Source: Escherichia coli
GTDB lineage: Bacteria > Pseudomonadota > Gammaproteobacteria > Enterobacterales > Enterobacteriaceae
Direction: 5' to 3' (one strand)
DNA: 1,956 nt
Assembly (NCBI RefSeq): GCF_003334765.1
Contig: NZ_QOWT01000076.1
Below, piece after piece: positions 1-1,956 of the stretch. The notes below the pieces were generated by a model. The model made no database searches and had not been told where the DNA came from. It saw only the letters and a list, made by a program, of their open reading frames with translations. The translations under genes and the position numbers were made by a program. Position 1 is the first letter of the stretch. Every line of letters starts with the position of its first letter.

Positions 1-533
1 TTCTGGCAACCCATCGCATCAGTTGTGATGATTTTTCCTTTAATATCCAGCATGTTAAGAAGTTCAGGGATAGCTGTGATCTCATTGGATTTCTTATCCG
101 TCTTGATCTGCCCGATGACCAGACTGTGCATTGTTGAGAACGCACTAATGACATGAATCGCTCCCCTGCGGCGACTCTTGTCATAAGAGTGCCGGAGCGT
201 TTTTCCATCAATTGCAATGACGTCTTTATCATTTGATGAATGGCAATCACGCATCCAGTTAATAAAGCACTCGTGAAATTTTGCAGGACTGATACAGGAT
301 ACAACTCTGGCAATAGTATCGTGAACAGGAATACCATTTTCAAAATCACCATATTGCTTCAAGAAATCGAGATGTGTTTCCCCGAAATCCTCTATATCTT
401 CCCAACTTTCTGCACCAGAAATAACGGCAAAAATAGTCAATAGTAGGATGCCTGACAATTTATGCTCTACTTTCCAGGCTTATCTGTAATCGGGAATAAT
501 AGAAATATGTTCCATCAATTTTTTAAGTTCCAT
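1..533 (-). pseudogene. ISAs1-family (H-repeat-associated type) transposase, N-terminal ~177 codons, 3'-partial (runs off the window start); interrupted by an in-frame TAA at codon 18
   Basis: Hand translation of the minus strand from the ATG at 531-533 gives MELKKLMEHISIIPDYR, then TAA (plus 480-482), then in the same frame [159 protein letters not shown], open to position 3. The pattern IxDxR...K.EHxLxxILLL..xAVISGA.xWxxIExFG ... GIPxHDTxxRV is the DDE_Tnp_1-associated N-terminal domain of ISAs1-family transposases. No minus-strand stop occurs in this frame between 479 and 1. Confidence 0.85.
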
Positions 534-758: not shown

Positions 759-1328
759 TTATTTCTCTTCACTACGAATTAGTTCATGCTGTATCTTTAT
801 TAAACATTCGTAAGACTCATTTTTGTTCGGGAGATGTGCTGTCATTCGAGCATAAGTTGGTTTCTCATCTTTAAAATATTTTACCATGATTGAATTATCA
901 AGGACTGCCAACAACTGAACTGGATCACTGCTCTTTTTTTGATAGATACCCGCTCTTATATAACTTCTAAACCGATCGCCGAGAAACGCCGTTTTTTCTG
1001 CTGTATTTATCAACTCCTGCAACGTTCCTTTGATGGCATGATTTTCATTAAGGCGTAGTGACCCGACGCGAATTAAGAGTCTCGCCCCGCTTGGTGTGAA
1101 TTTATTATTTTTACATGTACCCAGTTCTGTTTGCCAATAATACTCACCGATGTCCTCATTCTGATACCATCTCCACATGGCTTTATTATTTAAGACAGGA
1201 AACGCGGAAAAAATAGTACCCTTAGCGAAAATAGTAAAACAATCATGATCTTTAGCTTGTATTTCGCAATCAGCTATAACACCAAAACTAACAAATATCA
1301 TCAGCAAAAAGAACAAAACTCTTTTCAT
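759..1328 (-). CDS. Putative cognate immunity protein for the Rhs CT toxin; Sec-exported periplasmic protein (189 aa precursor)
   Basis: Track ORF 759..1328 (-). Its ATG (1326-1328) overlaps the toxin TGA (1325-1327) as ATGA. N-terminus [19 protein letters not shown]|DCEIQ has a basic n-region, a hydrophobic h-region and a V-I-A signal peptidase I site. An SD-like AGAGGAA lies 6 nt upstream. The gene is AT-rich (hand-sampled stretches about 28-43% GC). Position immediately 3' of a polymorphic toxin CT is the canonical immunity position. Confidence 0.75.
1272..1328 (-). other. Predicted Sec signal peptide of the immunity protein (19 aa, cleavage after VIA)
   Basis: [19 protein letters not shown] followed by DCEIQ. 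There is no lipobox: the residue before Cys is Asp, not G/A/S, so signal peptidase II processing is unlikely. Confidence 0.65.
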
Positions 1329-1956
1329 TTTCTTATTCCTCTCGATGTTCTCTGTTTCATCTTAGCTAAAATTTCACCCAAATCATCTATCCCTGCTGTT
1401 GCTGGCCCATCGGGTTTATTAATGTCTGGGAATAAATAGGGTTCTGCACAAGTATATCCTGGTGGTAATTGAGTTGTTGGCCAATTTGTCTGTGGCAGGT
1501 AATCACTTGCTGTCTTTGTATCCATCCCTGGATACTGGGAATCATCCTGTGGCGTACAAGTCAGATTTGGTTTTACCCACTTCCTGCAATACAGTGTGTA
1601 GTCGTAAGGGCTTAATGCTCTGAAGAATGTTTTGAAAACATTAGGCGCACTACTGGCCTGGTCAATAGGATATGGCAGTCTTAATTGTTTCGCTATGTCC
1701 GGCAATTTACTTGGATCGGGCGTAGGCGGTTTGTTGGGTCTCGCTCCATATCCGCCATTATTTAAGTGTCCATATTTTGATGCCAGTCCCATTGAATCTA
1801 TATACTGAACCGGATTCAGCGGATACTGATAAAAATTCCATCCCCCCTTCAGCCCAATCGGATCCTGAGTGATATACCTCCCCTGCAGCGGGTCATAATA
1901 GCGGTGGCGGTTGTAATACAGGCCGGACTCCTCATCATACTGCTGCCCCGGCAGGC
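1325..1956 (-). CDS. Rhs family (YD-repeat) protein, C-terminal fragment: end of the conserved core plus variable CT toxin domain; 5'-partial, continues beyond the window end
   Basis: The minus-strand frame of the 155-aa track ORF stays open from its Met (1790-1792) up to position 1954 with no stop. Hand translation of 1793-1954 gives [54 protein letters not shown], followed by [14 protein letters not shown]... This matches the hallmark end of the Rhs repeat-associated core ([12 protein letters not shown]...QDPIGL.GG.N.YQY..NP....D..GL). The Met at 1792 is therefore internal, not the true start. Stop TGA at 1325-1327. Confidence 0.9.
1328..1783 (-). other. Variable Rhs C-terminal toxin domain (152 aa) of unknown activity
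   Basis: Sequence after the GL junction: [152 protein letters not shown]. It sits exactly where Rhs CT toxins sit and is followed by a coupled small ORF. I see no HExxH, HxxxH or other canonical nuclease/peptidase motif, and the single His precedes all three Cys. Confidence 0.7.
1335..1341 (-). promoter_or_regulatory. Ribosome-binding site for the immunity gene
   Basis: Minus-strand AGAGGAA (plus-strand ttcctct at 1335-1341), 6 nt upstream of the ATG at 1328, located inside the 3' end of the toxin coding sequence. Confidence 0.5.
1784..1813 (-). other. Rhs core/CT junction motif (PxxxxDPxGL-type; here [10 protein letters not shown]), the predicted autoproteolytic demarcation site
   Basis: Ten codons, P(1811-1813) V Q Y I D S M G L(1784-1786), with the same spacing as the PxxxxDPxGL motif that ends Rhs cores, except that Ser replaces the Pro after Asp. 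Confidence 0.75.
1814..1956 (-). other. Conserved Rhs core terminal region (partial), relatively GC-rich
   Basis: Encodes ...[43 protein letters not shown]. Hand-counted GC for 1793-1956 is about 52% (86/164), clearly higher than the downstream CT and immunity sequence. Confidence 0.85.

Follow-up and report, generated by a model that had tools for sequence, protein, structure and literature searches.

The 1956-base stretch of Escherichia coli DNA analysed here (the window) is found, at an identity of at least 99%, in hundreds of complete E. coli chromosomes, several of which match it at 100%, and is part of the rhsC element of this species. The genes ybfO and ybfC and an ISAs1 pseudogene all lie on its minus strand. 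The first of these is an orphan Rhs fragment without an N-terminus, annotated as an RHS repeat-associated core domain protein, and its last 209 codons fall within the window. They encode the end of the Rhs core followed by a C-terminal region (CT) of 152 residues, the first 33 of which are the segment under study. The features of the window are as follows, with the basis of each assignment in brackets.

1325-1954 and beyond, minus strand: end of ybfO (open reading frame list, annotation)
1784-1954, minus strand: C-terminal end of the Rhs core of ybfO (translation, comparison with RhsC, annotation)
1784-1813, minus strand: variant of the autoproteolysis motif, 10 residues, ending in DSMGL (translation)
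1685-1783, minus strand: the segment under study, CT residues 1-33 of 152 (exact translation, 33 codons)
1760-1783, minus strand: variable junction, CT residues 1-8, ASKYGHLN (alignment, regional identities)
1673-1759, minus strand: probable basic, Pro-rich spacer, CT residues 9-37 (homologue comparison, dN/dS, pLDDT, charge)
1328-1672, minus strand: conserved, putative toxin domain, CT residues 38-152, YPID...GIRK (HMM ranges, alignments, AlphaFold2)
1418-1612, minus strand: confidently predicted core of that domain, CT residues 58-122 approximately (AlphaFold2)
CT residues 130-152 approximately, minus strand: C-terminal basic amphipathic helix, ending in a near-invariant R-K
1325-1327, minus strand: stop codon of ybfO, overlapping the ATG of ybfC as ATGA (open reading frame list)
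759-1328, minus strand: ybfC, 189 aa, presumed cognate immunity protein (annotation and the presence of homologues downstream of CT homologues)
1-533, minus strand: 5' part of an ISAs1-family (H-repeat) transposase pseudogene (translation; annotated as 'internal stop')

The ISAs1 pseudogene, which carries an in-frame TAA at nt 480-482 (codon 18), is context and lies outside the toxin module. Positions 521-536 at the start of the ISAs1 gene and positions 677-692 in the AT-rich intergenic region between ybfC and ISAs1 form an inverted repeat of 16 nt (88% complementary), which may be an IS end or a product of chance. The search for a feature or RNA on the opposite strand returned no Rfam match, no promoter-like sites above the level of shuffled sequences and no relevant repeats, and the GC profile is in no way special at 1685-1783. 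The Met of DSMGL gives rise to a spurious open reading frame of 155 aa (1325-1792), which has been entered in some databases as a separate 'Rhs-like' protein. The PCR primer rhsCR, which is used to type rhsC of the EHEC strain EDL933 (PMC7216683), matches positions 1723-1742 exactly on the plus strand, within the Pro-rich segment.

The end of the Rhs core defines where the exchanged part of ybfO begins. The core is 95% identical to that of RhsC from the same element (rhsC being L001 13453-17595) up to YQYPLNP, after which the two proteins diverge completely and continue into unrelated CTs. This identity stops short of GL by 9 residues, and the last residues of the core are therefore exchanged along with the CT. 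Self-cleavage of Rhs proteins comes after the motif PxxxxDPxGL (PMC8765631), and the ybfO core ends in a variant of this motif in which Ser replaces the Pro (DSMGL). The GL junction from which the sequence-only reading had measured its segment is therefore the right landmark, and exact translation places the 33 residues encoded by 1685-1783 directly after it. Homologues carry DPMGL, DPKGL, DSLGL or DALGL at the same point, and the Pro position of DPxGL seems, from this comparison, to tolerate substitution. Release of the CT at the variant motif by aspartyl autoproteolysis is assumed by analogy with characterised systems (PMC8765631; bioRxiv 10.1101/2024.02.26.582050). The Pfam families PF03527 and PF25023 are recorded on the cluster representative P0002. 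An in-frame core with its motif, an abrupt divergence at or just before that motif and a downstream gene for the presumed cognate immunity protein are thus found together here, as in other Rhs C-terminal modules.

Of 5426 complete E. coli genomes, 3571 (about two thirds) have the CT, which is carried in K-12 by the orphan ybfO and in O157:H7 as the tip of a full-length RhsC. More specifically, the rhsC locus of O157:H7 TW14359, by ybfA/kdp, has the CT and ybfC at the end of a 1399-aa Rhs protein whose N-terminus is of PAAR type (L007 7001-11200), and in strain FDAARGOS_1279 they end a 1395-aa PAAR-Rhs by nikR and the nik operon (L008 7001-11188). Both copies share 97.7-99% nucleotide identity with the module of the window, whose own strain has the CT on the orphan ybfO only. 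A distant homologue is found in an orphan array adjoining VgrG and DUF2169 genes. Two tandem orphan copies of a homologous tip occur in a Burkholderiales-type locus (L006). The last core residues, the spacer, the toxin region and ybfC together are a mobile Rhs 'tip' module.

The gene that accompanies the CT is informative as to the probable site of action. A YbfC homologue lies directly downstream of the CT homologue in all 8 loci compared (L002, L004, L006 and L009-L013), at 24-66% identity, and on this pairing YbfC is presumed to be the cognate immunity protein. The 4-nt ATGA overlap of ybfO with ybfC is kept in 5 of these 8 loci, which suggests that the two genes are translationally coupled. 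Judged by eye, YbfC begins with a Sec-type signal peptide of 19 residues followed by DC, and the same inspection finds a hydrophobic N-terminus resembling a signal peptide in each of the 8 homologues. Export of YbfC points to the periplasm as the site of toxin action, and this is probably where the YbfO CT would act. A recent survey has Rhs effectors acting almost exclusively in the cytoplasm, and because of such reports a periplasmic Rhs toxin would be unusual.

The putative toxin domain of residues 38-152 contains three conserved Cys (C66, C76 and C112), many conserved aromatic residues and Pro, and no conserved His; the Cys residues are consistent with a disulfide-stabilised fold formed in the periplasm. 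Neither the CT nor YbfC has a match in Pfam, NCBIfam or the PDB by sequence, and the domain has no relatives by sequence or fold in the PDB and AFDB outside its own small family. An in-silico study of EHEC likewise obtained only a weak threading match for the RhsC tip, to VipE at a TM of 0.574, and no functional study of the YbfO CT or YbfC was found in the literature. The sequence-only reading had judged the folded part to be small for an enzyme. Rhs toxins that measure about 110-137 residues after cleavage are on record (bioRxiv 10.1101/2024.02.26.582050), which makes about 115 residues an unremarkable size for such a domain, and that remark does not hold.

Structure prediction separates the CT into confident and unconfident parts. 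AlphaFold2 with an alignment of 8 sequences from the close family gave a mean pLDDT of 40 and was uninformative throughout, and with 27 sequences including distant homologues the mean rose to 63.6. In successive blocks of ten residues the pLDDT values of the latter model are 38, 45, 49, 44, 46, 60, 84, 82, 85, 81, 86, 82, 53, 58, 61 and 50. Residues 1-47 thus stand at 38-49 and residues 61-120, in which three beta-strands and short helices are predicted, at 81-86, in an alignment that is shallow (27 sequences) and gappy over the spacer, so that confidence is lowered there by that alone. Low values are also seen outside the spacer, at the conserved residues 38-57 and in the tail (residues 123-152), where a C-terminal helix is predicted at residues 132-148 with a pLDDT of 50-61. 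A short helix is proposed by the same model at residues 30-33. The expectation that residues 1-33 would be left out of the folded core is borne out insofar as the model places them in no confident structure (pLDDT below 50), with the reservation that residues 38-57 are weak too.

The composition of the segment is that of a linker, although its Pro content by itself is not distinctive within the CT. Proline occurs 6 times and glycine 4 times among the 33 residues (30% Pro plus Gly), with PNKPPTPDP at residues 16-24, and the segment is indeed rich in these two amino acids as originally described. Proline makes up about 4.4% of a generic proteome, and against this background the Pro count of the segment is significant (binomial p=0.003). 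Outside the segment, however, the CT is rich in Pro as well (15 of 119 residues, 12.6%; for the whole CT 21 of 152, 13.8%, p=4e-6), and by comparison with the CT itself the Pro content of the segment is not significantly raised (p=0.30). The PNKPPTPDP cluster likewise lies within the range of CT shuffles, at a p of about 0.14-0.16. Pro-richness is therefore not special to the segment, nor does the family require it, since in other subfamilies the corresponding spacers are rich in Ser, Thr, Asn, Gln and Lys instead. What sets the segment apart from the remainder of the CT is its content of Gly (12% vs 5%), of Pro plus Gly (30% vs 18%) and of hydrophobic residues (15% vs 30%), a bias towards Pro, Gly and polar residues and away from hydrophobic ones that is typical of linkers. 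On two crude scales it is also the most disorder-prone part of the CT (TOP-IDP 0.27, FoldIndex -0.25). The CT has a mass of 16.9 kDa and a pI of 9.1. Its acidic core lies between two basic parts, residues 1-38 with a charge of +4 and the C-terminal tail with +3, and the spacer carries most of the net positive charge.

Within the enterobacterial clade the constraint on the CT varies along its length. Mean pairwise identities by region are as follows.

CT residues 1-8: 50%, the sole region with indels
CT residues 9-33: 71%, no indels
CT residues 39-57: 82%
CT residues 58-122: 79%
CT residues 123-152: 65%

Estimates of dN/dS (Nei-Gojobori) are lowest in residues 58-122 (0.15), intermediate in residues 9-38 (about 0.25) and highest in residues 123-152 (0.43), values that are small in number and noisy since they derive from 5 sequences in ten pairs. 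All close homologues (63-77% identical) are enterobacterial Rhs tips and all keep the segment, with the spacer motif RPxxPPxPxPxKLPxIAxxL conserved throughout the clade. On these comparisons the spacer is clearly under purifying selection in enterobacteria, whether for composition or for sequence. A linker would be expected to be relaxed in sequence, and this one, at a dN/dS of 0.25 and free of indels over residues 9-33, is not; the notion of a freely flexible linker has to be given up to the extent that the sequence does not drift freely. By this sequence measure the constraint exceeds the needs of a purely passive linker, which keeps alive the rival reading of a functional arm or leader. The sole histidine of the CT, His6, was considered as a catalytic residue and rejected because homologues have R or N at this position.

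A different picture emerges when the comparison is extended beyond the enterobacteria. A profile of the close family searched against 1.84 billion representative proteins gave 27 matches, among which the distant Rhs CTs P0036, P0039, P0040, P0041 and P0044 align only from profile position 35-37 to position 152. In these distant homologues 25-40 residues separate DPxGL from the start of the domain, (Y/H/L)P(I/L/V)D...SPYDYTQYC, and these residues are unrelated in sequence and have net charges from 0 to +6. A Pro-rich spacer is found in only two clades, the others being rich in Ser, Thr, Asn, Gln and Lys or charged. Hypervariability in sequence and length between conserved flanks, a further mark of a linker, is thus evident in spacers of 25-40 residues. 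P0037 and P0040 are 78% identical in the domain and 33% identical, with indels, in the spacer; P0036 and P0037 are 67% identical in the spacer and 55% in the domain. These discordant histories indicate that spacer and domain are decoupled, and this is the clearest result to come from the homologue comparison.

Taken together, the starting point of the distant matches, the unrelated spacers and the discordant histories place the module boundary just before Y38 (nt 1672/1673). The earlier reading had ended its linker at about residue 33. The existence of a separate, non-globular spacer is supported by the homologues, the decoupled histories and the pLDDT values, and it is the end point that requires revision, to a boundary at about residue 37 with a domain starting from Y38-P-I-D. 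In a survey of about 17 Rhs CT starts, some fold at once and some begin with polar spacers, and the ybfO CT stands at the Pro-rich extreme. Homologues of 115-125 aa that appeared to be natural, spacer-less 'stand-alone' proteins were also considered and were rejected. The Delftia orphan (L013 3630-4348) is frameshifted inside the end of the core, and its 115-aa 'hypothetical protein' is consequently an artefact of open reading frame calling.

It is thus probable that the folded toxin core does not include residues 1-37 of the CT and that these form a non-globular spacer. The segment would be the main part of this basic spacer of about 37 residues, which would join the autoproteolysis motif (...IDSMGL, with A as the first residue behind it) to the toxin domain, which is compact and some 115 residues long. 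Aspartyl autoproteolysis would take place behind GL, and the acidic Rhs cage would then hold the CT in an unfolded or partly folded state, in which the spacer could provide slack between the toxin domain and the C-terminal plug of the cage. The interior of the Rhs cage is described as negatively charged and the toxins inside it as unfolded or as molten globules (bioRxiv 10.1101/2024.02.26.582050); from this we infer that the spacer gives slack and may aid retention or exit electrostatically. A role of the spacer in encapsulation or release, as the sequence-only reading proposed, is plausible. After delivery by the T6SS the CT would exit the cage and fold in the periplasm of the target, probably with disulfides, and YbfC would neutralise the presumed toxin in the periplasm of sibling cells.

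A different explanation is that the segment is no linker and forms instead part of the toxin itself, folding conditionally, for example as an arm to bind the target or YbfC or as a stretch that completes the fold once disulfides have formed. Purifying selection at a dN/dS of 0.25, the 71% identity of residues 9-33 without indels, the conservation of RPxxPPxPxPxKLPxIAxxL and the short helix that AlphaFold2 proposes at residues 30-33 are all in keeping with such a part. Moreover, since the adjoining conserved residues 38-57 also have a low pLDDT, low pLDDT is no proof of disorder. Against this explanation, homologues with a 78%-identical toxin domain have an unrelated spacer, and distant members without any equivalent sequence still keep both the domain and a YbfC-type partner. 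This makes an integral role unlikely. The notion that there is no distinct linker at all, the whole CT being Pro-rich and largely non-globular and the segment a local fluctuation within it, draws on the Pro content of 12.6% outside the segment, the comparison with the CT as a whole (p=0.30) and the Pro cluster that falls within shuffles, as well as on a negative FoldIndex over much of residues 65-110, the mean pLDDT of 63.6 and the lack of fold relatives. It is quite improbable given that residues 58-122 are predicted at a pLDDT of 81-86 with three beta-strands and are strongly conserved in distant homologues, including the three Cys and many aromatic residues, and that conservation has a sharp boundary at about residue 37.

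The location of the segment between delivery scaffold and toxin, its charge of +4 and the length of 25-40 residues across the family could also be accommodated by a translocation or entry element for membrane crossing, analogous to the N-terminal entry domain of CdiA-CT. The signal peptide of the immunity protein in 8 of 8 loci points instead to action in the periplasm, for which crossing of the inner membrane is needless. The segment is in addition far shorter than known entry domains, has no hydrophobic stretch and is unconserved in sequence between subfamilies, and there is very little chance that it serves for entry. A non-globular spacer in front of the toxin domain is accordingly preferred over these alternatives. 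A bolder extension would make the YbfO/RhsC-type CT and YbfC a structurally new family of small, disulfide-dependent periplasmic Rhs toxins, in which the basic, Pro-rich leader is a polyproline-type tether that binds the acidic interior of the cage and leads the toxin out; this extension is speculative and, as a whole, unlikely.

The practical value of the boundary at about residue 37/38 (nt 1672/1673) is that it tells experimenters which construct to express for a very common and uncharacterised toxin. The spacer alone matters little. The toxin/YbfC pair, with no recognisable family or fold and with an immunity protein that is exported, is a candidate member of the class of Rhs toxins that act in the periplasm, which is said to be rare, and this uncharacterised, probably periplasmic pair is a more interesting lead than the spacer.

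Comparison with known systems shows how far the ybfO arrangement conforms to established types. Pro-rich extended spacers with (Glu-Pro)n and (Lys-Pro)n repeats are known from TonB, and the ybfO spacer resembles that of TonB in its X-Pro periodicity (KP-PT-PD-PS...LP) and basic character, which are compatible with an extended, polyproline-II-like rod. The likeness does not amount to homology: the run is only about 14 residues long and occurs in another context, and a compartment-spanning role has no support here. Willett and colleagues reportedly described CdiA-CT in 2015 as bipartite, with an N-terminal cytoplasm-entry domain and a C-terminal toxin following VENN. CdiA entry domains are folded, have about 100 or more residues and specify the inner-membrane receptor. 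As in CdiA-CT, a variable part lies N-terminal to the toxin domain in the ybfO family and is able to recombine independently; unlike in CdiA-CT, this part is non-globular and only 25-40 residues long, and the toxin probably stays in the periplasm.

Closer parallels are found among the Rhs proteins themselves. The 'linker domain' of RhsP from Vibrio parahaemolyticus is, in the account of it given by a later preprint, a distinct element between core and toxin as the ybfO spacer is, but one described there as ordered in the structure (Tang et al. 2022, cited in bioRxiv 10.1101/2024.02.26.582050); as against that account, no confident structure is predicted for the ybfO spacer, which is hypervariable. 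With the PAAR-Rhs of Salmonella bongori and RhsA of Pseudomonas protegens the ybfO CT shares its position after a PxxxxDPxGL-type motif, the downstream immunity gene and modular swapping. It differs from both in a longer (about 37 aa), basic and Pro-rich spacer, in the motif DSMGL, in a toxin domain of no recognisable family or fold and in an exported immunity protein. The cleaved toxin of the S. bongori Rhs also has an N-terminal stretch of low confidence that is probably disordered (bioRxiv 10.1101/2024.02.26.582050). Other Rhs proteins are thus already known to have a short N-terminal stretch of poor structure in the cleaved toxin, or a linker between the core and the toxin, and in their company the ybfO spacer is ordinary.
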